Below, piece after piece: positions 1,767-40,852 of a DNA stretch of 64,000 nucleotides (positions within the stretch are counted from its first letter, which is position 1; every line of letters starts with the position of its first letter). The stretch comes from Candidatus Pacebacteria bacterium RIFOXYA1_FULL_38_18 (GTDB taxonomy: Bacteria; Patescibacteriota; Microgenomatia; UBA1400; PJMF01). The stretch is from the NCBI GenBank assembly GCA_001787405.1, contig MFWV01000009.1, forward strand, positions 26,278 to 90,277, written 5' to 3'. The notes under the pieces were generated by a model. The model did not search any database. It was given only the letters and a program-made list of their open reading frames with translations, and had not been told where the DNA came from. A program made the position numbers and the translations under genes.

Positions 1767-2800
1767 AAAATACTTTGATAGACTCGCATAGTTTCCTCGG
1801 CAGTTTTCTCCCAAGTAAACTGTTGCTCCCAGTCAGCAGCTTTCTTTACCCAAGCTCTGCGTTTGGCTTGAGTTAAATTTAAGATCATCTCAATATTTTC
1901 TGCCAGTGCCTCCGCAGTAGCTTCAGCAAAAAGAGTAACCTTGCCTCCCACTTCCAATAAAGAAGAGTTGCCAGTTGCTACTACTGGCGTTTTACAACGC
2001 ATTGCTTCCAAAACAGGCAAACCAAAACCCTCAGATAATGAAGGCTGAACATAAACTGCTGCTGCAGAATAAATAGCTGATAAAGTTTGATAGTCATCGC
2101 TTAGAATATCTGGTTTGAACAATACTCGTTTGGCAACATTACTCAGTGCTATTTGCGCCTCTATGGCCTGCCACTCAGGAATGTCTTGTGGGAAAAAATG
2201 TTTGCCTACGCAAACCAACTTGATGTTTTCTGGTAAATATTTGAGAGCTTTGATTAATTGAGGAATATTTTTATTGTAATTAATGTCTCCTACATACAAG
2301 ATATATTTTTCTGGTAACTTGAGTTTGCGCTTGGCTGTTTTTAGTTTGCTGGCAGGTAGTGGTTGTAAAAATGGATTGGCCGCCAGAGGCACTACCGCTA
2401 TTTTTCCCAAAGGTACACCCAAATGAGTAGCAATATCTTGTTGCGAGGCTTGAGAGTCCGTGATGACTTTAGCTACTGTCTTCAGAGCTAGTTTCTGATG
2501 AGCAAAAGCCAACCAGCCTCGTTTGCCCACAGGATATTCTTTGGGAAAAAGAAGTGGGATAACATCATGAATCGTTACTATGGTTTTACTAAATTTGGCC
2601 AGTGGCAAAGTGGGGAAAAATAAATCAAAGAAAGGATAGTGGACAATGTCTATTTTTTTAGGCCTTTGCACTAAACTAGAGCGATACAATTCTATGCCAG
2701 GTTGCTTTTCCAATGCTTCACTCAAAAAACGAGTGTACATTCCCACTCCGCGAATAGCATGACCGGATGAGAGTGGTTGAACATTGATCAGAACTTTCAT
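1763..2800 (-). CDS. GT4 (GT1-fold) glycosyltransferase
   Basis: EGFGLPVLEAMRCKTPVVATGNSSLLEVGG retaining-GT motif. The start is trimmed to MKVLINV for a 4-nt overlap with the gene at 2797. Confidence 0.85.
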   Translation of the reverse strand: MKVLINVQPLSSGHAIRGVGMYTRFLSEALEKQPGIELYRSSLVQRPKKIDIVHYPFFDLFFPTLPLAKFSKTIVTIHDVIPLLFPKEYPVGKRGWLAFAHQKLALKTVAKVITDSQASQQDIATHLGVPLGKIAVVPLAANPFLQPLPASKLKTAKRKLKLPEKYILYVGDINYNKNIPQLIKALKYLPENIKLVCVGKHFFPQDIPEWQAIEAQIALSNVAKRVLFKPDILSDDYQTLSAIYSAAAVYVQPSLSEGFGLPVLEAMRCKTPVVATGNSSLLEVGGKVTLFAEATAEALAENIEMILNLTQAKRRAWVKKAADWEQQFTWEKTAEETMRVYQSIL

Positions 2801-3588
2801 GATCGACTTTCCTTTGTTTGCGTTTGCTCTAGTTCCCACAATTTAAGATAAGCTACTGGATAATGTAAACCGCTCATCAATGCGAAAACAAAACCTGGGT
2901 AACCATCCAAAAAACCTTTATGACGCAAAAAGAGTGAAAGAAAAATCTGCAATGGTTTGATTAAAAAATAATAAAAACCACCCCACCACGTCAAACGTTT
3001 ATTCTCTTCCCACCAAAGTTTGGCTCTAAAAGAAGTGTAGGTATCGAACTTACGCAAATAATCAGCAAAGGTAGGATTGGCAAAGTGGAGCAAATGGCCT
3101 TTTGCCAAACCCACCGAACCGTCCACTGTCATTTGCTCGTGCACATCAGCTTGGGGTAATTTGGCTTTGCCGGCTAAATATAAACGAATGACTGGATCAG
3201 GATACTGCCCGCCTTTGGTGAGCCAGCGACCCAAAAATAAATTTTTACGGCGAAGCCACCAAGCAGAATTTTTTAATTGACCTTCTTTGCGTTTTTTTTC
3301 GATGAGTTTGATAAATTCAAATAATTTTTCGTCCACTACTTCATCAGCATCCAGTTGCAAGATTAATTCCCCGCGAGCCTTATCCATTGCCAGCTGTTTA
3401 TTGATGTGAAAATTTTGTTTGTTGGTAGTTTTATAAACTCGTGCGTCAAAACTTTTGGCAATTTGGGGGGTGCTATCTTTAGAACTGCCATCAACTACAA
3501 TAATTTCATCGGCTAATTTTTTGATAGATGCCAAACAACGAGCCAAGTTTTTTTCTTCATTATAAGTAGCCAGTACAACTGAAATCAT
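2797..3588 (-). CDS. GT2 glycosyltransferase, DPM1/ArnC-like polyprenol-phosphate sugar synthase
   Basis: MISVVLATYNEEKNL...VVDGSSKDST...LDADE: GT2-A fold with DxD. The start is trimmed to MISVV for a 4-nt overlap. Confidence 0.85.
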   Translation of the reverse strand: MISVVLATYNEEKNLARCLASIKKLADEIIVVDGSSKDSTPQIAKSFDARVYKTTNKQNFHINKQLAMDKARGELILQLDADEVVDEKLFEFIKLIEKKRKEGQLKNSAWWLRRKNLFLGRWLTKGGQYPDPVIRLYLAGKAKLPQADVHEQMTVDGSVGLAKGHLLHFANPTFADYLRKFDTYTSFRAKLWWEENKRLTWWGGFYYFLIKPLQIFLSLFLRHKGFLDGYPGFVFALMSGLHYPVAYLKLWELEQTQTKESRS

Positions 3589-5150
3589 AAATCCTTTTCT
3601 ACGATCCAAACTGATGCTGTTTCTGACCATTGTACCAAGATTGTCTCGGTTTGAGAGCGATCTTGTGGCTCAGCAATAAAATGATAATGAGTGAGCTGTT
3701 CTCCATAACGAAAACCTATTTGATTTGGTTGCTGACGAATGATGGTTTTAAAATAAACATCAGGCGGAAGTTTGAGATACCAAGCCAAGATAATATAGTG
3801 ATAACCAGACGGATCGACAATGGCTATCGGCTGATCGGGGTGTTCTGCTTCCACTGTTTGCATTACTTGGGCAAAACCAGGTTGAAAAGCTTGCGTTTGT
3901 TTTGGATAAATTATGAATAATTGAAAAGCGTGATGAGTGGCTTCCAAAACAAGCACCAGTATTATTGCTCCCCAAATAAATTTATTTTGTTTGAGCCAGC
4001 CAGTCAACCAAACCAAGCCCCAAACCGCAATAATTTGTAATAAAACAAAAAAGAGCAAACTACGAGTGGCATGTGGCGCATCAACAGTGATGATGGCTGG
4101 GAGGAGTGAAGCAAAGAGCAACCAAAGCCAAGCCAGTTCGCGTTTGTGAGTTATTGTCAATTTTTTACAAGCTCGAATCGCTCTACCTGTCATGGCTATG
4201 ATTCCCACTCCGGCAAAACAGAAGCTAGTCCATAGGACGTGTCCCAAATTGGGCAGACTGTGCCATGGGTGACTACCACCTGTGGTTAGCAAAAACTTGA
4301 TAGAAAATGAGCTAAATAGATTTTTGATCGATAAATAAATAAAATAAAGATAACGATTGCCGATTAATGATTGCCAGGGTTGATTGAGGCTGGCTCGGAA
4401 ATTGCTCCATTCATGCCAAACAGTCTCATCACTGAAAATAGTAATGCCACTTTTTTGAGAAGTCAAAGCAAGCAATGACCTCAAACCTACCAAAAAAACT
4501 GCTCCCAAAATCAATTCTATGAGAATTAATTTGTTTTTCTGTTTATTGGCAAATCGCAACCAAACGAAAATCATCAAAACTGGTAAAAGTAATAAAGGCG
4601 TGTTGTAGGTAAAAATAGCCAGCAAAAGTAAGATTATTAAAAGCGGAACGTGCCAGCGTCGGGCTTTATGCTGAAATTCCAGTAAAACCACCAAGGCAGC
4701 TATTAGGTAGGTAAGAGCTAAGTTGGCCTCAAAAGCCAAACGCGAATACCAAATAAATACGGGAGAGACCGCTATCAATAAACTTGCCAGCCAAGCCTGT
4801 TTTTCAATGAACTTAATTTTTTTGGCCAGTAAAAAAACCAATGGTACCAGCACCGTACCAGCCAGCGCCGATGGCAGACGAACGGCCAAGTCAGTCAAGC
4901 CAAAAATCTTTAAAAAGGGAATTAATAATAATGGATAACCAGCCAATTTATAGTCGCCAAATGATTCTAGGGTAAGTGGCCAGCTTTTTTGCCATTCATC
5001 TTGGCCGGTTGTTGATAATAAATAAGCATTGTATGCCAGAGCTGCCTCATCGCGGTTGAGAATAGCGGGTAATTGACCCAATTGCCAAACACGCAAGAAG
5101 AAGGCTAATAAGGTGATTGAGATTAATAACCAATTGATTTTTTTATTCAT
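3585..5150 (-). CDS. GT-C family membrane glycosyltransferase (ArnT/PMT-like, GT39/GT83-type)
   Basis: N-terminal TM then first-loop motif LNRDEAALAYNAYLLSTTGQDEW (DE motif) and more than ten TMs. 4-nt overlap with the next gene. Confidence 0.85.
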   Translation of the reverse strand: MNKKINWLLISITLLAFFLRVWQLGQLPAILNRDEAALAYNAYLLSTTGQDEWQKSWPLTLESFGDYKLAGYPLLLIPFLKIFGLTDLAVRLPSALAGTVLVPLVFLLAKKIKFIEKQAWLASLLIAVSPVFIWYSRLAFEANLALTYLIAALVVLLEFQHKARRWHVPLLIILLLLAIFTYNTPLLLLPVLMIFVWLRFANKQKNKLILIELILGAVFLVGLRSLLALTSQKSGITIFSDETVWHEWSNFRASLNQPWQSLIGNRYLYFIYLSIKNLFSSFSIKFLLTTGGSHPWHSLPNLGHVLWTSFCFAGVGIIAMTGRAIRACKKLTITHKRELAWLWLLFASLLPAIITVDAPHATRSLLFFVLLQIIAVWGLVWLTGWLKQNKFIWGAIILVLVLEATHHAFQLFIIYPKQTQAFQPGFAQVMQTVEAEHPDQPIAIVDPSGYHYIILAWYLKLPPDVYFKTIIRQQPNQIGFRYGEQLTHYHFIAEPQDRSQTETILVQWSETASVWIVEKDL

Positions 5151-6835
5151 GGCATTTTTTCAAAATAAATAGCTGCATACTCTGGTCGGTAATCTGCTGT
5201 ATAAAAAATTTTATACCAATTTGGCTGACGAGAGGCAATGGTTTCCAGTTGCCAATCAATAAAATCTTTTCTAGCAATCAAAACTGTTTTTTCAGACAAA
5301 GTAGGTAGTTTTCCCCAATCGAACCAACGAAAACGAATATTATCAATATGGGTGGGCATGTATTGATCAAACTCAATTTTGCTAAAATCCTCAACTGGCA
5401 ATTCATAGGCCATTAGCCACAAATAAAATCTGCTATCGAAAGGCTCGATCCACACTACATCCATTTCTTGTTTTTGTTGCCAAGCTTCATGCGCCAAATC
5501 AGCAAAACCAGTCTGCCACTCACTAGCCGATAGACTGGGATAGACGGAGAAATAAAAAGTAGTGAAGTCCCAAAATGAAAATGCCACTATTGATAGTAAA
5601 CTAAGCCCGAAAGCTAGTTTGAGCCAGCTTGGTTCAACTGCTTGCTTGATTTTCTGCCAACCATAGAAACATCCCCAACCAATCACCACAGTCAGTGGAA
5701 CTAGAGCATTGAGAGAGCGCAAGGCATGAGGGGTGGTTTCTGGTACTGAAGCTGGCAGTAGAGCTGTCAGCCACCACAAGAGCAATAAGACTCCCACTCG
5801 CCAGTGTTTAGTAAACAAAACAAACCAACCATAGATAAAGGGCAAAATAAAAATCGTCAAAAACAAACCATGCCTACCAGTACCATGACGAAGATTGGGA
5901 TCGCCAGTAAAAAAGAGAAAGTCGCTAGAAAGATTGTCTGCATAATTTTTGGCCAGTTCACGAATCAATAAAACTTTGGGATGATAAATGACTTTATCAA
6001 ATAAGGTATTACCGGCTGATAATTTATATTGATTGGAGACTACTGGCCAATCAGCCATGTTCAAAACAGAAGTGGCGCTGAGCCGAAACTGATTGCTGAT
6101 TTTATAAAATGGTGAGCGATACATGGGCCAAAGACTGAGGGTAAAAATCAAGAGCGGTAAAATTAAATTCAAACCAAGCCAGCGCCATAAATTCTGGCCT
6201 TTTCGTTGGGGACCGGCAAATAAACAAATGGTTGCTACAAAAACTACCGGCCAAACAAAACGAATCGAAAAATAAGTATAAGTAGCCAAACCACCCAATA
6301 AAGCTGCGGCCAAGCCCCAAACCCAGTGTTTTTTAGTTTTGAAAGCCAACCAAATACTAGTTGCCATCAGCAATTGACCCACGTGTCCTTCAAAGCCAGT
6401 TCTGGAAAAAAGGATGCTCCAGGGAGTGAGAGCGATAATGAATGCTGTCCACAGAAAAATTGATTGTTGATGCTGTTTTTTTATAGAACCTACCAGCTGA
6501 CTAGCCAAAGCTCCTCCAATGAAAATAGTTGCCATACCAGCCAAGGCGCTGGGTAGCCTCAAAGCCCAATTACTAGCTCCCCACAGTTTAACACTGATAG
6601 AAGCCAGCCAAATATAAACCGGAAGCTTGTAATCACCATAAGACGGGAAAATAGCCGATAGCCAAGCATTACCATGCATGTCCTGACCAGTGGCAGCAAT
6701 GGCTCGCGCATCTACCAAAATCGCTGCTTCATCCCAGTAAAGAGAGACTGGCACCTCTCCCAAACGATAAAAACGCACCGTCAAGCCAATCAAGAAAATA
6801 AAACTCAAAATTAAAGCAAAAAGCCATTTGGACAT
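5147..6835 (-). CDS. GT-C family membrane glycosyltransferase (ArnT/PMT-like)
   Basis: RFYRLGEVPVSLYWDEAAILVDARAIAATGQDMHGNAW; polytopic. Confidence 0.85.
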   Translation of the reverse strand: MSKWLFALILSFIFLIGLTVRFYRLGEVPVSLYWDEAAILVDARAIAATGQDMHGNAWLSAIFPSYGDYKLPVYIWLASISVKLWGASNWALRLPSALAGMATIFIGGALASQLVGSIKKQHQQSIFLWTAFIIALTPWSILFSRTGFEGHVGQLLMATSIWLAFKTKKHWVWGLAAALLGGLATYTYFSIRFVWPVVFVATICLFAGPQRKGQNLWRWLGLNLILPLLIFTLSLWPMYRSPFYKISNQFRLSATSVLNMADWPVVSNQYKLSAGNTLFDKVIYHPKVLLIRELAKNYADNLSSDFLFFTGDPNLRHGTGRHGLFLTIFILPFIYGWFVLFTKHWRVGVLLLLWWLTALLPASVPETTPHALRSLNALVPLTVVIGWGCFYGWQKIKQAVEPSWLKLAFGLSLLSIVAFSFWDFTTFYFSVYPSLSASEWQTGFADLAHEAWQQKQEMDVVWIEPFDSRFYLWLMAYELPVEDFSKIEFDQYMPTHIDNIRFRWFDWGKLPTLSEKTVLIARKDFIDWQLETIASRQPNWYKIFYTADYRPEYAAIYFEKMP

Positions 6836-6859
6836 GTATTTATGGTAACAGAGTTTAAC

Positions 6860-8661: not shown

Positions 8662-10362
8662 TCACTCCACAATTGCCAATTGCCAAACCTCTTTTCCAGC
8701 CAAATCCTCAATTATCTCTGGTTGATCTTTGATTTTGAGTCCAGTGAATTGATCGGGCGAGCCAGCAACAATGGCTGGCAGAGTGGTTATTTCCTGCAAA
8801 CTACCTACAAAATGCAGATTGGCAAACTCCAGAAACTCACCCTGATCCTTTTTGACAGTATTATTTTCTCGTTGTACTAAAACAGGATCAGTGGCTGTAT
8901 AAAACCAATAATACATAGCTGGTCTGCCCTGCTCTCTAGTAATGTAAACTGGCAAATCGGGATATTGATTACGCAAAATCTCTACTCTATCAATCAATTG
9001 TTCGTAACCATATTGCCATTCCGAGGAAAATTGTTGCGGATAAACAAATAATAAATGTCGATAAAAAGCAGCAAAACTAAAGCCATAAAAAAAGACTAGA
9101 CTCAGTGGCAAAATAAATAATTTTTTTTGCCAACACTTATCCTTGAGCCATTTAGCAATCCAAACCCAACTCTGCCAAATACCAAAAACAGCGATCAATA
9201 AAAACACCGGAGCAACCGGTAAAATACGCAAGGCATGGGGTACAGTTTTGGACATGGCAGCCGGCAAAATACCAAAAATCAACCACCCAACCAATAATCG
9301 TCGTTTGATTGGTGGCAATTTTTTCAAAACCCAAACCGCACCAACTAATAAAAATATTATTTCTGAAGGGTAAAAAAGACCAAAATAACCAGTAGAGTGA
9401 CGCGGATTTTCATCACCGGCAATAAATAGAAAAGCTGGATTAAAATGTACCAGAAACTGCTCTATTATTTTTGTACCCTGCAAAACAAAACGATGATAAA
9501 CCACTCTGGAGAAAACCGAGTTATGATGTAGTTCTTTGAGCGTATTACTCTCTTTAATAATCGTTAAATCACTAAATAAACTAGTTTCCGTCAAACGCTG
9601 TTTCAGCACTGGAGTCCCTAAGGCAGAACTGAAAGGTTGCAGTAAAGCAGCAGTCAGAAATAAAGGTAAAACATAACCAAAAAGCCAAACATTTTTGAAT
9701 TTGAGTCTCAAATCCTGACTGACAAACTGCCAGCCAATAATCAGGCCCAATACCGGAGCCAAAACTCTAGTACTGTGATAGGTATACAGAGCGGCAAATA
9801 ATAATAAAATGCTCAACATCAACCAAGCAAATCGCCACCGATTTTCTGGTTTGAGCTTAATTGCTTGCCAGCCGGTAATTATGCCCCACAAAATAAAAAA
9901 GCTAGCCAAATTAACTTCCCAACCCGCTCTAGAAAATTGAATAAGCCAAGGCGAAATAGTACTCAAACTTAGAGCAATTAATACTAACCAGCGCCGAGTC
10001 TTGAGTGATAAAATTTCTTGACTAAATTGCCAAACTAGCACTCCCAAACCAGCTACTATCCCCACTCCTGCCAAAATCGATGGCAAGCGAACTGCCAGAG
10101 CGCTCAAACCCCACCATTTGATAAACGGAACTAAAGCATAAAAATAACCACTCGGTTTCCAATCACCAAAAGATTCAAAAGCTACCAACGGCACAGCGCC
10201 ATGATGATCTTTGCCTGTTTCCAAAATAGAATAAGCATCATAACCCAAGGCTACTTCTTCCCAATATAAAGCTGGAGGAGAACTGGTAACTTTGAAAAAT
10301 CTCACCCCAAAAGACACTAACAAAATACTGATTATTGCCCACTGCCAAATCCTTTTTGTCAT
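8662..10362 (-). CDS. GT-C family membrane glycosyltransferase (ArnT/PMT-like)
   Basis: RFFKVTSSPPALYWEEVALGYDAYSILETGKDHHG; polytopic. Confidence 0.85.
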   Translation of the reverse strand: MTKRIWQWAIISILLVSFGVRFFKVTSSPPALYWEEVALGYDAYSILETGKDHHGAVPLVAFESFGDWKPSGYFYALVPFIKWWGLSALAVRLPSILAGVGIVAGLGVLVWQFSQEILSLKTRRWLVLIALSLSTISPWLIQFSRAGWEVNLASFFILWGIITGWQAIKLKPENRWRFAWLMLSILLLFAALYTYHSTRVLAPVLGLIIGWQFVSQDLRLKFKNVWLFGYVLPLFLTAALLQPFSSALGTPVLKQRLTETSLFSDLTIIKESNTLKELHHNSVFSRVVYHRFVLQGTKIIEQFLVHFNPAFLFIAGDENPRHSTGYFGLFYPSEIIFLLVGAVWVLKKLPPIKRRLLVGWLIFGILPAAMSKTVPHALRILPVAPVFLLIAVFGIWQSWVWIAKWLKDKCWQKKLFILPLSLVFFYGFSFAAFYRHLLFVYPQQFSSEWQYGYEQLIDRVEILRNQYPDLPVYITREQGRPAMYYWFYTATDPVLVQRENNTVKKDQGEFLEFANLHFVGSLQEITTLPAIVAGSPDQFTGLKIKDQPEIIEDLAGKEVWQLAIVE

Positions 10363-29671: not shown

Positions 29672-29681
29672 AAAGATTTTT

Positions 29682-31201: not shown

Positions 31202-31267
31202 TCTTCAATTATATAATGCTAAGTCCTTTTTGGAATGATATACTGGCTCAATAATCTAGAGAAATTT

Positions 31268-32566
31268 ATGAACATCACTATTATCGGTACCGGATTTGTA
31301 GGAGTAGTAACGGCAGCAGTTTATGCTTCCTTTGGTCACCAGGTCATTGGTTTGGATGTTGATGAACAAAAAATTTCCAGCTTGAAAAAAAGTCAGGTGC
31401 CTTTTTATGAGCCTGGTTTGGAAGAACTTCTCAAAGAACAACAGGCTCACCACAACCTAAGTTTTACCACGGATTATCAAACTGCCATCAAAGATGCTGA
31501 GATTATTTTTGTTACGGTAGGCACTCCTTCCGCTCCCGATGGCCAAGCTGATTTGCGGTTTGTGTTTGCCAGTGTAGAGTCACTTGCTCCTCACTTGCAA
31601 AAACAAGCCATTGTCGTGATTAAGTCCACTGTTCCACCCGGCACTTTGGATAAAGTGGAGGAATTGATTCATTCGCACACTGAAACTGCCTTTTACACTG
31701 CTGCTGTCCCAGAATTTCTGCGAGAAGGTTCAGCCGTAGCAGACACTCTTCATCCTGATCGCATCGTGTTGGGTGCCACTAATGAACAAGTCTTTAAAAA
31801 ACTAGAAGAATTACATCGACCACTGCAGGCTCCAATGATCAGAGTTAAGCCAGAATCGGCTCAAATGGCCAAATATGCAGCCAATGCTTATCTAGCCACC
31901 CGCATCACTTTTATCAATCAAATTGCCGATTTGTGTGAAAAAAATGGAGCTAATGTAGAAGAAGTTGTGGTAGCCATTAGTCCTGATAAACGTATTGGAG
32001 CTCATTATTGGTATCCTGGTTTTGGTTATGGAGGTTCATGTTTTCCCAAAGATGTAAAAGAGTTGGCGGCTTATTCACGCGCCATTGGTGAGAGTGATAA
32101 TTTATTCAATAAAGTCAATGATCTCAATCAAGACAGAATTCCCAAACTCTTGGACAATTTTGAAAAGAAGATTGGTGGTTGGGAAAATAAACAAGTGGCT
32201 GTTTTGGGCTTATCTTTCAAACCAAATACTGATGATATGCGTGAATCCCCCGCCACCCTAGTCATTCCGATTTTGCTGAGTAAAGGAGCTAGTGTAACTA
32301 GTTTTGATCCCATGGCCGATTGGCAAAGATTTTTACGTTTGGAAAAAATGGAAAAAAATCATCAGCAATCCGAAACTCTCAAACAAGCCGTCAAAGATGC
32401 AGATGTCATTATTGCTTTGGTAGAGTGGCCAGAAATTATTGGTTTTGATTTTGCCGAAACTAAAACAACCAAGCAACAGTGGTTTATTGATGCTCGCAAT
32501 CAATTTTCTCCAACAATCATCAAAAAAATAGGTTATCACTATCTAGGCTTGGGACGCCCATCATGA
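31268..32566 (+). CDS. ugd: UDP-glucose 6-dehydrogenase (nucleotide-sugar dehydrogenase family)
   Basis: MNITIIGTGFVGVVTAA...GGSCFPKDV catalytic Cys motif. The start is moved to the MNITIIG Rossmann start; the ORF track start is 31235. Confidence 0.85.
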   Translation: MNITIIGTGFVGVVTAAVYASFGHQVIGLDVDEQKISSLKKSQVPFYEPGLEELLKEQQAHHNLSFTTDYQTAIKDAEIIFVTVGTPSAPDGQADLRFVFASVESLAPHLQKQAIVVIKSTVPPGTLDKVEELIHSHTETAFYTAAVPEFLREGSAVADTLHPDRIVLGATNEQVFKKLEELHRPLQAPMIRVKPESAQMAKYAANAYLATRITFINQIADLCEKNGANVEEVVVAISPDKRIGAHYWYPGFGYGGSCFPKDVKELAAYSRAIGESDNLFNKVNDLNQDRIPKLLDNFEKKIGGWENKQVAVLGLSFKPNTDDMRESPATLVIPILLSKGASVTSFDPMADWQRFLRLEKMEKNHQQSETLKQAVKDADVIIALVEWPEIIGFDFAETKTTKQQWFIDARNQFSPTIIKKIGYHYLGLGRPS

Positions 32567-33507
32567 CCGATATTATTTTAATCACTGGAGGAACTGGGTT
32601 TGCTGGCTCTCATTTGGTAGAGGCTTTATTGGCCAAAAATCAAGCTCCAGAGACCATTCATGTTACTAGTTTTTCAAATAAACCTGGATTTGTCGGTCAG
32701 TTATTACCTGCAACCAACATTCATCAACTCGATCTAACTCAAACAGAAGCAGTTATAAAAGTTTTTACTAAGCTTCAACCAACTCAAATCTTTCATCTGG
32801 CTAGTTTCTCTTCACCTAGTCTAAGTTTGGAAAATACCGCCAAAGCCATCGAGACCAATGTCGAGATTCAAATGAATGTGCTGGAGGCAATGCGCGTGCA
32901 TACTCCCCAAGCTCGTCTATTATCAATCGGCAGTGCTTCTGAGTACGCCAGTTCACCAGAGCCTCTAAGTGAAACCAGCATCTTGGGTCCTCATGATCCT
33001 TATGGCGTTTCCAAAGTTGCCCAAGACATGTTGGCTTATTCCTATGCCGTACGTTTTGAGCTGGATATTGTGCGAGTCAGACCATTCAATCACATTGGCG
33101 AGCGTCAAGAAAAAGGTTTTGTAGTCAGCGATTTTGCTCATCAGATTATTCAAATTGAACGAAAGCTACAACAAGAAATTCAAGTAGGCAATCTACAAGT
33201 TACCAGAGATTTTTCTGATGTAAAAGACATTGTCCAAGCCTATTTATTATTGATGGCTGAAGGAAAATCCGGTGAAGTTTATAATGTGGGTAGTAGTAAA
33301 GATGTTACTATTCAAGAACTATTGGCCAGAATGAAGGCTCTCTCTACGGTTGATTTTGCAATCAAAGTGGTGGAGCAAAAACAACGTCCGGGAGATATTC
33401 CTCGTAGCGTGGCTGAGATTAGTAAAATTAGTAAACTGGGTTGGCAACCAACTATTCCTCTTGAAAAAACATTGGAACGAATATTAAATTGGTGGAGACA
33501 ACAATAA
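32563..33507 (+). CDS. NAD-dependent epimerase/dehydratase family, GDP-4-keto-6-deoxy-D-mannose reductase (Rmd)-like
   Basis: ILITGGTGFAGSHL...YGVSKVAQDML (YxxxK) at about 314 aa, sitting immediately upstream of gmd. Confidence 0.65.
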   Translation: MTDIILITGGTGFAGSHLVEALLAKNQAPETIHVTSFSNKPGFVGQLLPATNIHQLDLTQTEAVIKVFTKLQPTQIFHLASFSSPSLSLENTAKAIETNVEIQMNVLEAMRVHTPQARLLSIGSASEYASSPEPLSETSILGPHDPYGVSKVAQDMLAYSYAVRFELDIVRVRPFNHIGERQEKGFVVSDFAHQIIQIERKLQQEIQVGNLQVTRDFSDVKDIVQAYLLLMAEGKSGEVYNVGSSKDVTIQELLARMKALSTVDFAIKVVEQKQRPGDIPRSVAEISKISKLGWQPTIPLEKTLERILNWWRQQ

Positions 33508-33519
33508 GAAAGGGAATTT

Positions 33520-34497
33520 ATGAAAAAAGCATTTATCACCGGCATTACCGGTCAAGACGGATCATATTTAGCTGAGTTTTTATTGGAAAAAGGCTATCAA
33601 GTTTATGGACTGACTCGCAGAACCAGTACCCAAAATTTTGATCGTATTAAAAAAATTGTTCACAATCCCAATTTGAAATTAATTTCAGGAGATTTAGTTG
33701 ATCAGAACTCACTCACTTTTGCTTTTAAAGATACTCAGCCTGATGAAGTTTATAACCTAGCTGCTCAATCATTTGTGCAAGCTTCCTGGGAACAACCAGT
33801 TTTGACTGGCGAATTTACTGGCTTGGGAGTAACCAGAGTATTGGAAGCAATGCGTCTAGCTTGTCCAGGGGCTAAGTTTTATCAAGCCAGCTCCAGTGAA
33901 ATGTTTGGTAAGGTGCTGGAAACTCCACAGAATGAAAAAACACCATTTTACCCACGCTCTCCTTATGGAGTAGCCAAGGTTTATGGTCATTGGATTACGA
34001 TTAATTATCGAGAATCTTACGACTTATTTGCCGTCTCTGGCATTTTATTCAATCATGAGTCCCCTCGTAGAGGTTTGGAGTTTGTTACCAGAAAAATTGC
34101 CAATGGAGTAGCCAGAGTAAAATTGGGCAAACAGCAATTCGTGGAACTGGGCAATCTAGAATCAAAACGAGACTGGGGCTATGCCAAAGATTATGTGGAA
34201 GCCATGTGGTTGATGTTACAACAAGATAAGGCAGAAGATTTTGTGATCGCCACTGAAGAAACTCACTCCGTCAGAGAATTTTTACAACTAGCCAGTAAAG
34301 CAGCCGGGATTAATGACTGGGAATCAATTTACAAACATAATCCCGTTTTTGATCGACCAGCAGAAGTAGACATGCTCATTGGTGATGCTAGCAAAGCCAA
34401 AAAGAAACTAGGTTGGAAACCATCAGTAGATTTTGAGGGATTGGTCACTTTGATGGTTGAGGCCGAACTAGAAGAAGAACGTAAAATAAAGGCGTAA
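33520..34497 (+). CDS. gmd: GDP-mannose 4,6-dehydratase
   Basis: [35 protein letters not shown]...ISGDL...SSSEMFG...[19 protein letters not shown]. Confidence 0.9.
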
Positions 34498-34507
34498 GAT
34501 TCATTTT

Positions 34508-35683
34508 ATGAAAAAAAAGTCGGCCATTATCATCATTCCTACTTATAATGAGCGAGAAAACATCACTGCTACCCTGGAACAAGTCTATGCTGTGTTGCGT
34601 ACCGTTAAAAATTGGCAATGCGGAGTCTTGGTAGTTGATGATACTTCTCCAGACAAAACCTATGAATTGGTAAAAAAACTGCAAAATAAATATAGTAATT
34701 TGCATTTATTTCTCAACAAACGAAAAGCCGGTTTGGGTGGGGCTTATCTCAAAGGCATGGCTCATGCTTTTAATGAACTGGGAGCCGATCTCGTTTTTCA
34801 GTTTGATGCTGATTTATCTCACGATCCCAAAAAAATTCCGCAGTTTTTGAAAAAAATCGAAGCCGGCAATGATTTGGTGTTGGGCTCGCGCTATATTCCT
34901 GGTGGCAGTATTCCTGATAATTGGGGTCTGCATCGAAAATTCCTGAGTGTAATAGGTAATTTATTCATCAACATTGTGTTGACCAATTTTAATGTGCGTG
35001 ATTGGACTACTGGTTATCGAGCCGTTAATAAAAAAGTTTATCAAGCCGTTTCTCCAGAACTAACAACAGAGCGTTTTTCAGGATATACTTTTCAGATAGG
35101 CTTTTTACATAAAGCTATCAGTAAGGGTTTCAAGGTCGCTGAAGTGCCATTTCACTTCAAAGATCGTAATTTTGGTAAAAGTAAAATAGGACCAGAGTAT
35201 ATTAAAAATACTCTGTTATACATCATGAAGGCTCGCTTACAAGAAATTTTCAAAAACAGAATCTTTAAATTTTTGGTAGTGGGTAGTGTCGGTGCTTTTG
35301 TGCAGTTATCTACTTTGCAAATCTGGCGATTATTATTTCCCTTTCAACTTGCCTTTTTCCTAGCCATTGAGGGAGCCGTTATAAGTAATTTTATTTTTAA
35401 TAATTTTTGGACTTTTTCTGATCGAAAATTACAATCCAAACAATATTTCTCCAAATTTTTACAATTTAACTTAGCTTCAGGAGGCTCAATTATTATTCAG
35501 CAATTAATTGCTTTTCTGGGAGAAATGTATCTTGGTTTGTTTGATTTATTCACTCTACCCATAATCAATTTTACTATCGACACCGGCACAATGTATGCCG
35601 TCGTAGGAATCTTGATTGGGATGTTCTGGAACTTTTTTGCCTACAGTAAGATTATTTGGAAAAAACAAAACAAGGCTCATTAA
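34508..35683 (+). CDS. GT2 polyprenol-phosphate sugar synthase (DPM1/GtrB-like) fused to a C-terminal GtrA-like membrane domain
   Basis: AIIIIPTYNERENI...VVDDTSPDKT...FDADLSHDP followed by a 4-TM tail, FKFLVVGSVGAFVQLSTLQIWRLLF..., that is typical of GtrA. Confidence 0.8.
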   Translation: MKKKSAIIIIPTYNERENITATLEQVYAVLRTVKNWQCGVLVVDDTSPDKTYELVKKLQNKYSNLHLFLNKRKAGLGGAYLKGMAHAFNELGADLVFQFDADLSHDPKKIPQFLKKIEAGNDLVLGSRYIPGGSIPDNWGLHRKFLSVIGNLFINIVLTNFNVRDWTTGYRAVNKKVYQAVSPELTTERFSGYTFQIGFLHKAISKGFKVAEVPFHFKDRNFGKSKIGPEYIKNTLLYIMKARLQEIFKNRIFKFLVVGSVGAFVQLSTLQIWRLLFPFQLAFFLAIEGAVISNFIFNNFWTFSDRKLQSKQYFSKFLQFNLASGGSIIIQQLIAFLGEMYLGLFDLFTLPIINFTIDTGTMYAVVGILIGMFWNFFAYSKIIWKKQNKAH

Positions 35684-37249
35684 ATGAAGGTAACTGCCTC
35701 CTGGAAAAAAATCATCCTGGGATTGTTGTTGATAAGTGGAGTTTTTTTGCGTTTTTATAATCTTGCTGGCACCTTGCAATTTCAAGGCGATCAAGGTCGC
35801 GATGCTATCGTGGTAGCTGATATTTTCCGTCAAAAGGATCTGGTTTTTATCGGTCCTGTAACTAGTGTGGGCAATATGTACTTAGGTCCACTTTATTACT
35901 ACTTTATGCTACCTTTTTTATGGCTTTCTTATCCCAGTCCATTGGGACCTGTCTATGCTGTAGCCTTATTGGGAGTGATAGTCACTTATCTTATTTATAA
36001 ACTGGGCAAAGATCTAATCGGCAAAACAGGAGCTTTGCTGGCTACCTTCTTTTTTACCTTTAGTGCCACGATTACGCAAACTTTTCGTTTTAGCTGGAAT
36101 CCCAATCCAGCGCCATTTGTCTCTATCGTGATGATTTGGGCTACTGCTCAAGCTTGGCAGAAAAATCCTCGTTACTGGATCTTGGTGGCAATTACTTTTA
36201 GTGTCCTTATTCAACTTCATTACATGACTTTACTGGCTGCACCGGCAGCTGGAATAATTTGGCTGGTTGATTTTTGGCAACGACATCGGAAAGCGCCCAA
36301 GAAACTTCGTCCTTATTGGCAACAACTAAAGTTATTGATCCTGCCAACGCTGATCGGCGCTCTTATTTTTCTATTATCTCTAACTCCATTGGTGCTTTTT
36401 GATCTAAAACATGAGGCCACCAATCTTCAAGCTTTCAAATCACTACTAACCAGTGAGGAAAACTTCACTCCTACCGGTACTGTCAAATCTTTGCTGGGTA
36501 AAACTACTGAAACCCTCAAAGAAACCGAGGGCAGAGGCATGCATATTTTATTTGAATATATGATTGGAAAAAATAGACCTCTAAATCAATCATTATTGTA
36601 TTTGGTTTCTTTTGTTTTACTGATTAATTTATGGAAAAAACATCAACTTGGAAAAGAATCAAAAAAAGAATGGGTGCTCGTTTCTTATTTGGGATTTGGT
36701 ATCTTGGGCACTGCTTTGTACCAACACACTATTTTTGATCACTATATTGCCTATCTTTTTCCTATCACTGTTTTGGTTTATGGTTTTGTCTTGACCAAAA
36801 TAAGACCGCATTGGCTGGGTTTTCTAGCCGGAATTTTATTTGTGGCAGTTTTTCTGCAATATAATCTCCCTCGATTGCCACTCAAAACTACCGGTTGGAC
36901 AATGGCTGATATTCAGCAAACCAGTCAAGAAATCTTGAAGCATGTCAAACCAGGAGAAAAGTACAACTTGGTTTTATTATCCGAAAGCCGTGATATTAAT
37001 GGCCAAAATTATCGTTATTTTTTGACTACTGGTCACACTAGGCCAGTCTCAGAAAATGAACGCGGAGAAATAGAAACTTTGTTTATTATTAATGAAGAGA
37101 AAAAAATTAGTAAAGTTACTGATTCTCCCATTTATGAAATAGTCGTCTTTCCTAATAAAGAACCTGCTGAAGTTTTTTCAATCGATAACGGTCCAGAAAT
37201 CACGATTTTGCGTACAACTACCCAAGAAAGCTTGGAACCGCTAGAATGA
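35684..37249 (+). CDS. GT-C family membrane glycosyltransferase, ArnT-like (variant first-loop motif DQGRDA)
   Basis: LRFYNLAGTLQFQGDQGRDAIVVADIF aligns to the ArnT DETRYA loop. It is polytopic with a large C-terminal soluble domain. Confidence 0.65.
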   Translation: MKVTASWKKIILGLLLISGVFLRFYNLAGTLQFQGDQGRDAIVVADIFRQKDLVFIGPVTSVGNMYLGPLYYYFMLPFLWLSYPSPLGPVYAVALLGVIVTYLIYKLGKDLIGKTGALLATFFFTFSATITQTFRFSWNPNPAPFVSIVMIWATAQAWQKNPRYWILVAITFSVLIQLHYMTLLAAPAAGIIWLVDFWQRHRKAPKKLRPYWQQLKLLILPTLIGALIFLLSLTPLVLFDLKHEATNLQAFKSLLTSEENFTPTGTVKSLLGKTTETLKETEGRGMHILFEYMIGKNRPLNQSLLYLVSFVLLINLWKKHQLGKESKKEWVLVSYLGFGILGTALYQHTIFDHYIAYLFPITVLVYGFVLTKIRPHWLGFLAGILFVAVFLQYNLPRLPLKTTGWTMADIQQTSQEILKHVKPGEKYNLVLLSESRDINGQNYRYFLTTGHTRPVSENERGEIETLFIINEEKKISKVTDSPIYEIVVFPNKEPAEVFSIDNGPEITILRTTTQESLEPLE

Positions 37250-38013
37250 TAAACATGGCAAATAACTCTCCTTTTCTATCAGTGGTAGTGCCCTCTTTCA
37301 ATGAACAAAAAAATATTGCCAGAGGAGTATTGTCAGAAATGCTGGATTATTTAAAAACTCAAGATTATTCTTGGGAAATAATCCTCACCGATGACGGTAG
37401 CACCGATGGTACTGTTGAAAAACTAACGGCCTTTGCTAAGAACCATCCTCACATTAAAGTTTTGAAAAATCTGCACGCCGGAAAAGGACCCACTGTGGCA
37501 GCAGGAATGTTGGCTGCTAACGGTCAATGGCGTTTATTTACTGATTTTGATCAATCAACTCCCCTTTCAGAAGTAGAAAAATTATTTGCTTTTACTGATA
37601 CTCATCAAGTTATTTTTGGTTCTAGAGAAATAAAAGGAGCCAAAAGAGACAAGGAACCATTTTATCGTCACTTGATGGGGAGAGGCTTTAATTTATTGGT
37701 CCGGATTATGGCAGTACCCGGAGTCAGCGATACTCAATGTGGTTTTAAGTTATTTTCAGCACCCACAGCAGAAACACTATTCAAAAAATTATATGTTTAT
37801 GGTCATCAAACAGAACGGCCAGATGCCTTCACTGGTGCTTTTGATGTGGAATTATTATTTTTGGCCAGAAAACTGGGATTTGCGAGTATTGAGGTGCCCA
37901 TTCTTTGGCGACATCATGCCACTGATCGAGTCAGTCCTATTAAAGATTCCTTGCGCATGTTGCGTGATATTTTATTGATCAGATGGGCCAAAATAACGGG
38001 TAAATATCGATAA
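37246..38013 (+). CDS. GT2 polyprenol-phosphate sugar synthase (DPM1/ArnC-like)
   Basis: FLSVVVPSFNEQKNI...LTDDGSTDGT...TDFDQS. Confidence 0.8.
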   Translation: MINMANNSPFLSVVVPSFNEQKNIARGVLSEMLDYLKTQDYSWEIILTDDGSTDGTVEKLTAFAKNHPHIKVLKNLHAGKGPTVAAGMLAANGQWRLFTDFDQSTPLSEVEKLFAFTDTHQVIFGSREIKGAKRDKEPFYRHLMGRGFNLLVRIMAVPGVSDTQCGFKLFSAPTAETLFKKLYVYGHQTERPDAFTGAFDVELLFLARKLGFASIEVPILWRHHATDRVSPIKDSLRMLRDILLIRWAKITGKYR

Positions 38014-38015
38014 AA

Positions 38016-39305
38016 ATGTTTAAAAAAAATAACCTGAAAATTGGTAATCCCTTAAGTTTGCTATTTAAATTATTATTTGTTTTCAACTTACTTTACGTTT
38101 TTTGGTCATATTCTCTTACCGATCCCAACTTAATTCTCACTAGTTGGCCACCTTATTGGCAATTTCAGCAAAGAATGTGGCAGTTCTTTTTTCATCAGCG
38201 AGAGTGGTTGAGTTATGGATATGCTAGTTTGATGATCGGTTTATTTGCTGTTTATTTTTGGGGTATTTATTTGACTGGCAAACAAACCGCAAAAATCGTC
38301 CAGCGAAAAGATTTTTTTAAATATCTATTGGCTCTCTCTCCTCTGTTGCTAAGTTACAACGCTCTTTCTCATGATGTATTTAATTACATTTTTAATGCCA
38401 AAATGATTCTGGTTTATCATGCCAATCCTCATCTTCAAGTTGCTCTGGATTTTGTTCGTGATGATTGGGTTCGGTTTATGCATAACACCCATACCCCAGC
38501 TCCATATGGTTACGGCTGGACCGCTCTTTCACTATTACCTTCTTTTTTGGGAGCAAGCAAATTTGTCGCTACCTGGTTACTCTTTCGAGCTTGGGCTGTT
38601 ATTAGTTTGGTTTTGTTGTACCAAGTGATAGTCAAATTAACTAGTAAAGTTACTGGTAAATCATTGAGCCTGCCTTCTTTTTGGTTATTATTTGCCAATC
38701 CGCTGTTATTTATCGAAATAATCGCCAATCAACACAATGATTTATGGATGCTGGTGCCAGCCTTAACTTCTATTCTATTGGTCATTGAAAAACCAACCTG
38801 TTTGCTTGGGCGCAGTCAATTGACAAAAAAAACAATGAGTGTTTTGCTTTTCAAATTATTACTTTCCATAGGCTTATTGATTTTCTCGATTTCCATCAAA
38901 CTAGCTACCCTGGTGCTAATTCCTATTTGGTTGCTAATCATTGCTCGCTGGTTTGTGCCTTTAATAAAACAAAGGATTTCTAAATTTAATTTGATGTGGT
39001 TGAACTCGGTTGCTCTTTTTCTGCCACTTTTTACTGCTCGTTCACAACAATTTCTCCCTTGGTATTTGATCTGGTCTTTGGTCTGGCTACCTGTCATCAA
39101 AATTGGGTGGTGGAAACGTTGGCTGGTGATAATTTCTCTAACCGCCATGGCTCGTTATCTACCTTGGTTGTGGGCCGGTGGCTTTGACAGTCAAGTCTTG
39201 TGGCAACAAAAATTATTTTTATGGGGTGGAGCAGTGGGACTGTGGTTGATTATTTCTTTATTTTCACTCTTTAAAGCTAAAGTAGCTTACAATAAAAAAA
39301 CATGA
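38016..39305 (+). CDS. Polytopic membrane protein, probable GT-C-type glycosyltransferase (DUF2029/GT87-like guess)
   Basis: About 12 TM segments with the loop motif NALSHDVFNYIFNAK. It is co-operonic with GT2 and GT-C genes. Confidence 0.5.
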   Translation: MFKKNNLKIGNPLSLLFKLLFVFNLLYVFWSYSLTDPNLILTSWPPYWQFQQRMWQFFFHQREWLSYGYASLMIGLFAVYFWGIYLTGKQTAKIVQRKDFFKYLLALSPLLLSYNALSHDVFNYIFNAKMILVYHANPHLQVALDFVRDDWVRFMHNTHTPAPYGYGWTALSLLPSFLGASKFVATWLLFRAWAVISLVLLYQVIVKLTSKVTGKSLSLPSFWLLFANPLLFIEIIANQHNDLWMLVPALTSILLVIEKPTCLLGRSQLTKKTMSVLLFKLLLSIGLLIFSISIKLATLVLIPIWLLIIARWFVPLIKQRISKFNLMWLNSVALFLPLFTARSQQFLPWYLIWSLVWLPVIKIGWWKRWLVIISLTAMARYLPWLWAGGFDSQVLWQQKLFLWGGAVGLWLIISLFSLFKAKVAYNKKT

Positions 39306-40852
39306 AAAAAATCTTTAAGCCAATTACTTTATTTTTCTTGGGTTGTTTGGTAGTTTATTTGGCTACTCATCTGCCTGCTTTGACTAAACTACCAGTTTTT
39401 GCTGATGAAGCAATCTATCTTCGTTGGGCCCAACTTATTCTGGACGACTGGCGACAATACTTATTTTTCCCTCTCAATGACGGCAAAACGCCGTTATTTA
39501 TCTGGCTAGCAGTGGGATCGCTCAAAATATTTACCGATCCATTATTGGCTGGTCGAATGATTTCTTTAATTGCCGGTCTGGTTCAGGTTTGGGTGACAGT
39601 TTCGATAGTTAAAAAACTGGGAGGCCAAAAAATCGCTGTTGTTTTTGCAACTTTGACAGTGATTTGGTTACCTTTTTGGTTTTTTCATCATCGAATGGCT
39701 TTGATGGACGGCCTGTTAGTTCTTTGGCTTTCTCTTTCAATCAATAGTTTGCTATCTGCTAGTTTGAAAAAATCCAAGCGTTGGCAAGCACTACTGGGAG
39801 CAGGTTTGTTTTTTGGCTTGTCATTATTGACCAAGTTATCAGCTCTATTATTTATTCCGATTCTTTTACTTGTACCTTGGTTGGTTAAAACTAAAAAAAT
39901 CAATCATGCTCACACTCTCAGTTGGAGTGTTGGCACGCTATTAATTGGTTTGTTAGTTTTTCTCAGTCTCAAGTTGCAACCTGCCTTTGGCCAGTTATTT
40001 AATCGTGGCAACGATTTTCTTTATCCATTAAATGAAGTTTTGGCTCTGAAAGTTTGGCCGGTTGTTTTTGCCAATAGCCGTCATGTTTGGCAAGTACTGA
40101 ATGCTTATCTAACTTGGCCAATCCTGATTTTACCTATCTTGGGTCTTTGGCAAACAAAGTGGCAGAGAAAGCATTTTATTTTATTATTGACTGCTTTGGG
40201 CTTCTTGGGGCCAATCATTTTATTGAGCAAAGTGCTCTATCCTCGTTATTTATTACCAGCTGCCCTACCCATAACAATCTCAGCTTCATTGGCTTTTGAA
40301 CAGTTTTTTTTGAGTACCAAAAAAGCAATAAAAAAACCCTTCATTTTTTTCATTAAAGTTAGTTTCTTAATCTTTGGCATTACTTTTGTCAGCACTAAAG
40401 CTCTAGAATTTACCCTCATTTCCTGGCAAGACCCCAACCATCTGCCCTTCACTGATCTGGATAGATCTCAATATTTACAAGCTTGGTCTGCTGGAAATGG
40501 TATCAAAGAAACAACCGATTATTTATTATTAACCGCTCAAGAACACACCGTCGCTGTCGCCACCGAAGGCTATTTTGGTACTTTGCCCGATGGAGTCTTG
40601 ATGTATTTGCATAATCAAGATGTGACCAATATTTTGGTTGAGGGCATTGGTCAGCCGATTCACGAAATTCCCGATGATTTTGCTAAAAAGGCTCAATATT
40701 TTGAACAAGTTTGGTTAGTAGTAAATTCTCACCGACAAATGATGCATTTAACTCCCGATCAACCGAATGTTGCTTTGATTAAAAAATATTGTCGAGTAAA
40801 TCATGCTCCTTGTCTGGAAATCTGGGACATTACTCAGCTAGTTCATCAGTAA
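39302..40852 (+). CDS. GT-C family membrane glycosyltransferase, ArnT-like
   Basis: LPVFADEAIYLRWAQLIL (DE motif as in ArnT DETRY), polytopic, with a C-terminal soluble domain. Confidence 0.8.
   Translation: MKKIFKPITLFFLGCLVVYLATHLPALTKLPVFADEAIYLRWAQLILDDWRQYLFFPLNDGKTPLFIWLAVGSLKIFTDPLLAGRMISLIAGLVQVWVTVSIVKKLGGQKIAVVFATLTVIWLPFWFFHHRMALMDGLLVLWLSLSINSLLSASLKKSKRWQALLGAGLFFGLSLLTKLSALLFIPILLLVPWLVKTKKINHAHTLSWSVGTLLIGLLVFLSLKLQPAFGQLFNRGNDFLYPLNEVLALKVWPVVFANSRHVWQVLNAYLTWPILILPILGLWQTKWQRKHFILLLTALGFLGPIILLSKVLYPRYLLPAALPITISASLAFEQFFLSTKKAIKKPFIFFIKVSFLIFGITFVSTKALEFTLISWQDPNHLPFTDLDRSQYLQAWSAGNGIKETTDYLLLTAQEHTVAVATEGYFGTLPDGVLMYLHNQDVTNILVEGIGQPIHEIPDDFAKKAQYFEQVWLVVNSHRQMMHLTPDQPNVALIKKYCRVNHAPCLEIWDITQLVHQ

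Follow-up and report, generated by a model that had tools for sequence, protein, structure and literature searches.

The first 41 kb of a 64,000-nucleotide stretch of contig MFWV01000009.1 from Candidatus Pacebacteria bacterium RIFOXYA1_FULL_38_18 (the window; genes are named by their first coordinate in it) encode a large set of glycosyltransferases and end in an eight-gene operon (31235-40852) whose gene order is the same in about 70 of the 80 closest species-level genomes. In this right-hand block the complete gene set of the known multi-component scheme of extracytoplasmic glycosylation is present twice, in conserved order. Two glycosyltransferase family 2 (GT2) proteins, one supported as polyprenol-phosphate sugar synthase-like (34508) and one a candidate second synthase (37246), are encoded next to putative membrane transferases of the GT-C type. 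The original prediction for this DNA had placed at least four such modules in the locus, with 2797 and 17515 as further DPM1/ArnC-like GT2s beside GT-C genes, and had seen in them the ArnC-ArnT/GtrB-GtrA-GtrC logic and several distinct lipid-linked donors. All nine open reading frames (ORFs) that it named were recovered with the same boundaries, and both the label and the logic hold for the 34508-40852 block. Neither extends to 2797 and 17515, and the donor synthases supported in the locus, like the distinct lipid-linked donors, shrink to two.

The window has a low GC content (about 38%). Three proteins encoded in it match those of Candidatus Pacebacteria bacterium RIFOXYB1_FULL_39_46, which belongs to the Patescibacteria (candidate phyla radiation, CPR), at 100% identity.

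The conserved operon 31235-40852

The operon reads UGDH - SDR - GMD - [GT2+GtrA] - GT-C - [ALG5-like GT2] - GT-C - GT-C and comprises the following genes:

31235-32566 (+), UDP-glucose 6-dehydrogenase (UGDH); TIGR03026, 427 bits
32563-33507 (+), SDR; no NCBIfam match above cutoff
33520-34497 (+), GDP-mannose 4,6-dehydratase (GMD); TIGR01472 gmd, 430 bits against a cutoff of 415
34508-35683 (+), GT2 with GtrA-like fusion, predicted polyprenol-phosphate sugar synthase; Glycos_transf_2, 97 bits, and GtrA_DPMS_TM, 54 bits
35684-37249 (+), GT-C (PMT_2/ArnT-like), partner 1; PMT_2, 34.7 bits against a cutoff of 26.1
37246-38013 (+), DPM1/ALG5-like GT2, candidate second synthase; best PDB matches PfDPMS, ArnC and GtrB
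38016-39305 (+), GT-C-like protein of an MptA/MptB-like family, partner 2; orthologues match PF26314
39302-40852 (+), GT-C (PMT/PMT_2, ArnT-like), third of the operon; PMT_2, 50.8 bits, and PMT, 39.7 bits

Its conservation was assessed with an alignment of 37246 homologues as query against species-representative genomes; the sample comprises the closest 80 of 231 relatives and describes this lineage and not all bacteria. The 80 loci returned share 60-87% identity with the ALG5-like GT2, and the window proteins were then mapped onto them with the following results:

35684 orthologue directly upstream of the 37246 homologue, 73/74 assessable loci
38016 orthologue directly downstream of the 37246 homologue, 73/74 assessable loci
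34508 orthologue two genes upstream of the 37246 homologue, adjoining 35684, 65/67 assessable loci
UGDH-SDR-GMD trio further upstream, 56/60 assessable loci
39302 orthologue after the 38016 orthologue, 57/64 assessable loci

The SDR carries 'PYGVSK' and 'RPFNHIGERQ' motifs, which we take to resemble those of GDP-4-keto-6-deoxymannose reductases (Rmd-type). The 37246/38016 module has no GtrA-like component of its own.

Many GenBank records with this operon bear titles that read 'uncultured Pseudomonadales bacterium', 'Methylococcaceae', 'Limisphaerales' or 'candidate division TM6' (L019, L021, L024 and others; L081 is CP011212.1). Such titles on a Patescibacteria-type operon make the record titles of these metagenome-assembled genomes look taxonomically unreliable.

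Predicted polyprenol-phosphate sugar synthases 34508 and 37246

The 391-aa protein 34508 aligns essentially over its full length with PfDPMS (PDB 5mlz; E 5e-45, residues 7-363 against 26-364), followed by ArnC (1e-13, residues 5-265) and GtrB (6e-6). Its top five NCBIfam matches are all polyprenol-phosphate synthases (PgfS, ArnC, AglJ, PpgS and Dol-P-hexose transferase). The functional residues of PfDPMS include the lipid-phosphate ligands R117, R131 and S135, located on interface helix 1 (IFH1) after beta5 (PMC5526996); 34508 keeps equivalents of all three (GSR...HRKFLS) and of the acceptor-loop residues R202 and K208. Its metal motif DADLSH is of the DADLQH type, with Q93 of PfDPMS replaced by Ser. 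The GT-A domain, the two interface helices and the four-helix transmembrane (TM) domain of PfDPMS are shared by 34508, which differs from it in being bacterial (Patescibacteria) and encoded downstream of a GDP-mannose dehydratase. Three segments of 34508, which carries a GtrA_DPMS_TM domain, exceeded the hydropathy threshold, compared with four TM helices in PfDPMS; TM segments were counted by a simple hydropathy scan. One point weighs against a straightforward equivalence: F177/K178 of PfDPMS align to Y/T in 34508, and K178 contacts the product in PfDPMS (PMC5526996). Overall, sequence comparison supports 34508 as polyprenol-phosphate sugar synthase-like with PfDPMS architecture. Its donor is probably a GDP-sugar, mannose or a 6-deoxyhexose, because of its homology to DPMS and its position after the GDP-mannose dehydratase gene.

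The 255-aa protein 37246 has its best PDB matches in PfDPMS (2.6e-15), ArnC (2.6e-11) and GtrB (7.5e-8), over about residues 8-179, and carries DFDQS as its DxD-type motif. It keeps GSR and PFYRHL (GSR...YRHLMG; R117/R131 equivalents), an amphipathic PFYRHLMGRGFNLLVRIMA segment resembling IFH1 and a C-terminal helix resembling interface helix 2. NCBI and JGI give many of its homologues the name dolichyl-phosphate beta-glucosyltransferase, an annotation and not a tested function. These features make 37246 a candidate for a second, DPM1/ALG5-like polyprenol-phosphate sugar synthase. Several points count against this assignment: S135 of PfDPMS is replaced by Gly, the hydropathy scan found no TM segment, no DUF2304, GtrA or DPM3-like partner gene was seen in the window, and the polyprenol-phosphate acceptor is assigned from homology and synteny only. 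Since PfDPMS truncated to a TM-less form was still able to reach the membrane (PMC5526996), the missing anchor is not disqualifying. The donor of 37246 is probably a UDP-sugar, given the ALG5-like naming of its homologues and the UGDH gene at the head of the operon.

The GT2-X subfamily

The seven GT2 genes of the 41-kb region form three subfamilies: GT2-X (2797, 14003 and 17515), GT2-Y (34508 and 37246) and GT2-Z (12011 and 14821). All four GT2s of the original prediction carry Pfam Glycos_transf_2 (PF00535) above the gathering score, a feature that is necessary for the predicted role and not specific to it. 2797 and 17515 lie among the following genes:

1763-2839 (-), GT4 glycosyltransferase; Glycos_transf_1, 94 bits
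2797-3630 (-), GT2-X, soluble GmaR/SunS/WaaE-type by profile and fold matches
3585-5150 (-), famA GT-C; PMT_2, 36.5 bits, and PMT, 32.3 bits
12011-15738 (-), predicted cytoplasmic transferases 12011 (GT2-Z), 12868 (GT4), 14003 (GT2-X) and 14821 (GT2-Z); Pfam and NCBIfam
15766-17505 (-), famA GT-C, variable insert in the five-transferase operon; full-length paralogue of 3585, E 1.5e-44
17515-18441 (-), GT2-X heading the five-transferase operon; best PDB match GmaR

The three GT2-X proteins are 26-31% identical over their full length (17515 and 2797, 31%). In single-sequence searches of the PDB, GmaR was the best match of 17515 (4.3e-14), for which no DPMS, GtrB or ArnC match was obtained at E<=0.01; 2797 likewise matched GmaR (7.4e-15), with DPMS (4e-3) and GtrB (6e-3) marginal. 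A profile built from 33 GT2-X sequences matched GmaR at 7.5e-28 over positions 2-177, followed by SunS (2e-14), ThuS and TarS, whereas DPMS, GtrB (1e-4) and ArnC (7e-4) aligned only at the nucleotide-binding N-terminus (positions 1-97 at most). The AlphaFold2 model of 2797 (pLDDT 90.8) has a GT-A core and, after it, three long helices. Where DPMS has IFH1, the model has beta-strands (109-118 and 133-138) with no aligned Arg. Among the top 50 Foldseek matches of this model in the PDB were SunS, ThuS, TarS, WrtF, TarP and RmlT and no polyprenol-phosphate synthase. Furthermore, the metal motif of GT2-X is DADE, as opposed to the DADLQ type of DPMS, and the hydropathy scan found no TM segment. Some GT2-X homologues are named (heptosyl)LPS beta-1,4-glucosyltransferase by JGI.

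GT2-X thus shares with GmaR, SunS, ThuS, TarS and WaaE(KdtX) the DADE motif, the GT-A core and a C-terminal helical extension. Unlike these enzymes, it has no TPR or peptide-binding domains, occurs in an organism without lipopolysaccharide (LPS) and is encoded in operons with GT4, GT2 and GT-C genes. Profile and model comparisons point to 2797 and 17515, together with 14003, being soluble nucleotide-sugar-using (Leloir-type) GT2s, and a role as polyprenol-phosphate synthases is not supported. In the clustering check put forward with the original prediction, 2797 and 17515 group with soluble Leloir-type GT2s, which for these two genes speaks against it in spirit.

Gene order around GT2-X orthologues was compared in a sample of 80 metagenome loci for 2797. 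The GT4 gene (1763 orthologue) lies directly downstream of the 2797 orthologue in 51/57 of the metagenome loci, and also in L001-L006. Other neighbours count in favour of the originally proposed pairing: a gene of famA, the larger of two GT-C families of the left block, lies directly upstream of the 2797 orthologue in 26/48 loci, six more have famA upstream with the arginyl-tRNA synthetase (ArgRS) gene in between, as in the window, and a gene of famB is second downstream in 17/46. A functional link between GT2-X and GT-C genes therefore exists, which leaves a narrow opening for a non-canonical donor-synthase role of GT2-X. However, GT2-X is linked to GT-C genes always together with GT4, which fits cytoplasmic assembly of a lipid-linked glycan and not a one-step donor synthase.

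For 17515, a single-sequence scan of genome contigs returned no relatives, and its context was taken from a homologue search instead. Its orthologues head five cytoplasmic transferases (GT2-X, GT2-Z, GT2-X, GT4 and GT2-Z), in the same order in L012-L015. The 15766-type famA gene is present in 1/3 distinct related contexts: L012/L013 carry it, and it is missing from L014 and L015. A trio of Wzx, famB and LCP genes lies near the 17515 orthologue in L014/L015.

The famA-ArgRS-GT2-X-GT4 order recurs in metagenome contigs L096, L104, L105, L109, L111 and L128, a recurrence which suggests that ArgRS is stably trapped in the glycan locus. Downstream of GT2-X, GT4 and GT-C genes, L001 (11598-12634) and L004 (9999-11005) encode an epimerase, a 224-230-aa GT2 and a DUF2304 small membrane protein; we take this GT2 and DUF2304 pair to resemble the mycobacterial PpgS/Rv3632-type polyprenol-phosphate-sugar synthase pair.

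Adjacency of GT2 and GT-C genes

The original prediction relied on GT2 genes lying beside GT-C genes. Such adjacency exists for all four GT2s that it named, but within the window it is not above chance (P≈0.2). Among the 32 genes of the region, 13 of them GT-C-like, six of the seven GT2s touch a GT-C irrespective of subfamily. In gene-order shuffles the probability of at least six GT2s adjoining a GT-C was 0.23, and that of the four chosen GT2s all doing so was 0.18. It follows that functional pairing has to be argued from family membership and from gene-order conservation elsewhere; the right-hand pairs exceed chance because their order is conserved across genomes. For annotation, 'GT2 next to GT-C' is thus insufficient as a sign of a lipid-sugar donor synthase; true modules are told from bystanders by subfamily features and by conserved synteny.

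GT-C proteins and remaining genes of the locus

An inventory of 1-41 kb from Pfam, NCBIfam and all-against-all BLAST comprises 13 GT-C-like genes, seven GT2s, two GT4s, a Wzx-like flippase, an LCP ligase and sugar-nucleotide genes, with ArgRS and TrmD genes scattered among them; the original prediction had counted too few. The GT-C-like set consists of six famA members (3585, 5147, 8662, 10369, 15766 and 21412; mutual identity 25-35%), three PTPS_related/YfhO-like paralogues forming famB (102, 19589 and 24604) and the singletons 18529, 35684, 38016 and 39302. The remaining features of the left block and the sugar-nucleotide genes next to it are:

102-1814 (-), famB GT-C-like membrane protein; paralogue of 19589, E 1.9e-13; 'HDGENHLAR' after TM1
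5147-6835 (-), famA GT-C; PMT_2, 26.4 bits
6860-8614 (-), arginyl-tRNA synthetase, embedded in the famA GT-C array
8662-10362 (-), famA GT-C; BLASTP to 3585, E 3.6e-45
10369-11982 (-), famA GT-C; PMT_2, 32.9 bits; BLASTP to 3585, E 1.3e-25
18529-19629 (+), short PMT_2-like GT-C, 366 aa; PMT_2, 22.1 bits, below the cutoff of 26.1
19589-21358 (+), famB GT-C-like; PTPS_related, 46.2 bits
21412-23088 (+), famA GT-C; against 15766, E 9.7e-51
23108-24607 (-), Wzx-like flippase; Polysacc_synt_3, 151 bits
24604-26379 (-), famB GT-C-like; weak YfhO/PMT_2/PTPS_related matches
26462-27649 (+), LCP ligase; LytR_cpsA_psr, 105 bits
27858-28871 (+), RmlB; TIGR01181, 472 bits against a cutoff of 365
28886-29671 (+), SurE-like (5'/3'-nucleotidase-like); surE, 100 bits, below the TIGR00087 cutoff of 135
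29649-30557 (+), RmlD-like; rmlD, 143.7 bits, below cutoff

The five GT-C proteins named in the original prediction (3585, 15766, 35684, 38016 and 39302) have 6-10 hydrophobic segments in the hydropathy scan, probably an under-count, with six in 35684. Matches above the Pfam gathering score were obtained for 3585 (PMT_2, PMT), 5147, 10369, 35684 (PMT_2), 39302 (PMT_2, PMT) and 19589 (PTPS_related); 39302 also has a weak ArnT NCBIfam match. The genes 8662, 15766, 21412, 102 and 24604 were assigned to GT-C via paralogy at E<=1e-11. The 36-48% identical positional orthologues of 38016 match PF26314 (MptA_B_family), and 5/35 homologues of this protein match PMT_2.

Acidic motifs of the first loop, whose lack the original prediction named as evidence against itself, are present in the sequences. 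In famA they comprise WDEAA (E35 invariant), TGxDE and SFGDYK, with acidic residues D51 and D66, and after TM1 FADEAIY occurs in 39302, GDQGRD in 35684 and HD..H..R in famB. D120 is invariant in the HD[IV]FNY motif of the 38016 family ('HDVFNY' in 38016); it follows the third hydrophobic segment, and its assignment to a loop is uncertain. The structural model gives lower confidence: for 3585, built from six famA paralogues, it reached a pLDDT of 53.6, and the only plausible Foldseek matches were ArnT (probability 0.98, E 0.01, TM 0.31) and AglB (0.87), both at low TM-scores, a weak pointer. Further results weigh against the GT-C assignments. Neither phmmer searches of the PDB with three of the proteins nor a profile of six famA paralogues returned anything relevant, no significant Pfam or NCBIfam match was obtained for 38016 itself, and hhalign gave a probability of 24% for the 38016 family against famA, a weak value that we do not use as proof of homology.

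A SurE-family gene occupies the usual RmlC position between RmlB and the RmlD-like gene, and neither RmlA nor RmlC was seen in the window. The short 18529 overlaps the start of famB 19589 by 41 nt and may be a truncated or divergent GT-C. The two were rejected as one frameshifted gene, since 19589 aligns full-length to its paralogue 24604. For 2797, 17515 and 37246, the longest-ORF start probably lies too far upstream. With 263, 300 and 252 aa, the deposited proteins imply starts near 3588, 18417 and 37255, respectively; given a start near 3588, 2797 and 3585 overlap by 4 nt and not by the apparent 46 nt. The GT2-Z genes 12011 and 14821 were rejected as further donor synthases (rhamnosyltransferase-, MftF- and EpsD-like matches, no TM segment).

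Directly after the glycan operon, a 219-aa ORF (40922-41581, +) encodes the HATPase_c part of a histidine kinase only, with no sensor or HisKA domain detected in it. It converges, with a 27-nt overlap, on an OmpR-type response regulator (41555-42244, -). In the related locus L009, too, the operon is followed by a response regulator. Further downstream, the ORF at 62140-63903 (-) encodes a soluble 587-aa protein with no significant Pfam family and a faint PEP-utilizers mobile-domain match (E 0.037); it was rejected as a further GT-C for its lack of TM segments.

Proposed pathway and alternative readings

We consider it likely that the 41 kb form one large cell-envelope glycan locus in two layers: a right-hand operon with two synthase/GT-C modules, and a left block for cytoplasmic assembly and finishing outside the membrane. 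From the family assignments, motifs, protein architecture and gene-order conservation described above, we infer the donor sugars, the flipping step, the acceptor and the pairing of GT-Cs with donors as follows. UGDH, the SDR and the GDP-mannose dehydratase would supply nucleotide sugars, from which 34508 would charge polyprenol phosphate with a sugar on the cytoplasmic side of the membrane and 37246 would make a second polyprenol-phosphate sugar. One candidate for flipping is the GtrA-like domain of 34508; the homologous domain of PfDPMS is that enzyme's own membrane anchor (PMC5526996). The GT-C proteins 35684, 38016 and 39302 would then transfer the flipped sugars to an acceptor outside the membrane.

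In the left block (102-27649), the GT2-X, GT2-Z (12011, 14821) and GT4 (1763, 12868) enzymes may build a lipid-linked glycan in the cytoplasm, perhaps containing rhamnose, which the Wzx-like protein would flip. The ten GT-C-like paralogues of this block (six famA, three famB and 18529) could elongate, branch or ligate the glycan outside, using either the two lipid-phosphate sugars of the right-hand operon or lipid-diphosphate oligosaccharides, and the LCP enzyme would attach the product to peptidoglycan.

A somewhat unlikely alternative to this division of labour is that only the right-hand operon is ArnC/ArnT-like and that famA and famB are polymerases, ligases or oligosaccharyltransferase-like enzymes, moving whole lipid-diphosphate oligosaccharides that GT2-X, GT4 and GT2-Z would build and Wzx would flip. 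The conserved famA-GT2X-GT4-famB order agrees with it, as does the presence of a Wzx-like flippase and an LCP ligase in the same locus, which is repeated in L014/L015. 3585 also weakly matches an O-antigen-polymerase family (E 0.0055) and Agl23 (44 bits), and the oligosaccharyltransferase AglB is among the few plausible fold matches of its poor model. However, ArnT ranks above AglB in that comparison, and the best Pfam matches are PMT_2 and PMT, which comprise users of lipid-phosphate monosaccharides. Six and three paralogues, moreover, suit branching or elongating enzymes with different linkages; the mycobacterial Emb/Aft/Mpt enzymes, paralogues with different linkages, offer a parallel for these numbers. 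No priming phosphoglycosyltransferase was found in the window, which counts against this alternative and also against the two-layer reading.

It is improbable that the GT2-X proteins are protein or peptide glycosyltransferases that modify a cytoplasmic or pre-secretory protein and are unrelated to the GT-C genes. Their closest solved relatives act in this way (GmaR, flagellin O-GlcNAc; SunS/ThuS, peptide S-glycosylation), and GT2-X homologues are 60-76% identical across Patescibacteria. Yet there is no candidate gene for a substrate peptide nearby, polymer glycosyltransferases of the TarS/TarP/RmlT type and WaaE-type annotations are equally close, and the tight, conserved operon context with GT4, GT2-Z, Wzx and GT-C genes speaks for a role in glycan assembly.

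That all four GT2s are polyprenol-phosphate-sugar synthases feeding adjacent GT-Cs, with at least four lipid-linked donors, is very improbable: beyond their shared adjacency, the famA and famB counts around 2797 orthologues and the GT2 and DUF2304 pairs of related loci, it can draw on a fairly hydrophobic, aromatic-rich C-terminal helix in GT2-X, for which hydrophobic-moment analysis was not discriminating, and it is opposed by the far better profile fit of GT2-X to GmaR, SunS/ThuS and TarS, the fold matches, the DADE motif, the strands at the IFH1 position without R117/R131 equivalents, the chance-level adjacency in the window, and partners that are constantly GT4 or other cytoplasmic transferases, with the 15766 GT-C dispensable beside 17515 orthologues. 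Soluble GT2s can be polyprenol-phosphate synthases with a small membrane partner, e.g. PpgS/Rv3631 with a DUF2304 protein, which also counts in its favour.

Comparison with known systems and significance

In its logic, the two-layer locus appears to match most closely the SCC locus of Streptococcus mutans, in which two pairs, SccN-SccM and SccP-SccQ, produce distinct Glc-P-Und donors and use them on a rhamnan attached by LCP enzymes (PMC11754754). Both combine two GT-A synthases and GT-C partners in one wall-polysaccharide locus with rhamnose genes and LCP attachment. In contrast to the GtrB-like synthases of S. mutans with two C-terminal TM helices, the Patescibacteria operon encodes a DPMS-type fusion and an anchor-less ALG5-like GT2; it also has three GT-Cs with ten more nearby, and the locus has a Wzx-like flippase and not an ABC transporter. 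The Arn (Ugd-ArnA-ArnB-ArnC-ArnT) and Gtr/CsbB-GtcA-YfhO systems (reviewed in PMC8035078 and PMC11127046) follow the same co-encoded logic, leading from tailoring genes to a GT2, a candidate GtrA-like flippase and a GT-C. The operon differs from them in that no ArnA/ArnB-type formyltransferase or aminotransferase genes are present, the match of 34508 to ArnC is weaker than that to DPMS, and the GtrA-like module is fused to the synthase and not free-standing.

The mycobacterial and corynebacterial system of Ppm1 with MptA, MptB, PimE, Pmt and Emb/Aft likewise combines few lipid-phosphate-sugar donors and many GT-C paralogues with an LCP-attached wall glycopolymer. Orthologues of 38016 match the MptA_B_family, with 38016 itself below detection for that model. 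The locus described here differs in belonging to a very small genome of a different phylum.

The mechanism as such is well known from Gram-positive, Gram-negative and actinobacterial systems, and its presence here adds no surprise. We found no paper that describes the operon, its conservation or GT-C expansions in Patescibacteria; multiple copies of 'dolichol-phosphate mannosyltransferase' in Peribacteria/CPR genomes were remarked on in 2016 (PMC4736985).

A more far-reaching reading, which we regard as unlikely, is that the operon constitutes a lineage-wide, probably essential Patescibacteria pathway for unusual lipid-linked donors. The DPMS-like enzyme would make a polyprenol-phosphate-6-deoxyhexose from the GMD and SDR product, and the ALG5-like enzyme, fed by the UGDH branch, polyprenol-phosphate-glucose or -glucuronate. 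The 13 GT-Cs, a set reminiscent of that of mycobacteria, would build an undescribed wall glycopolymer from them that shapes the episymbiotic surface.

Patescibacteria, with their tiny genomes, rely on contact with host cells, and to our knowledge almost nothing is known of their surface glycans. Two points are striking here: how well the operon is conserved, and how densely GT-C genes are packed in a reduced genome, in which about 40 kb, including 13 GT-C-like genes, are given to envelope glycosylation. The near-invariant two-module operon across many species marks a testable and probably important surface pathway.

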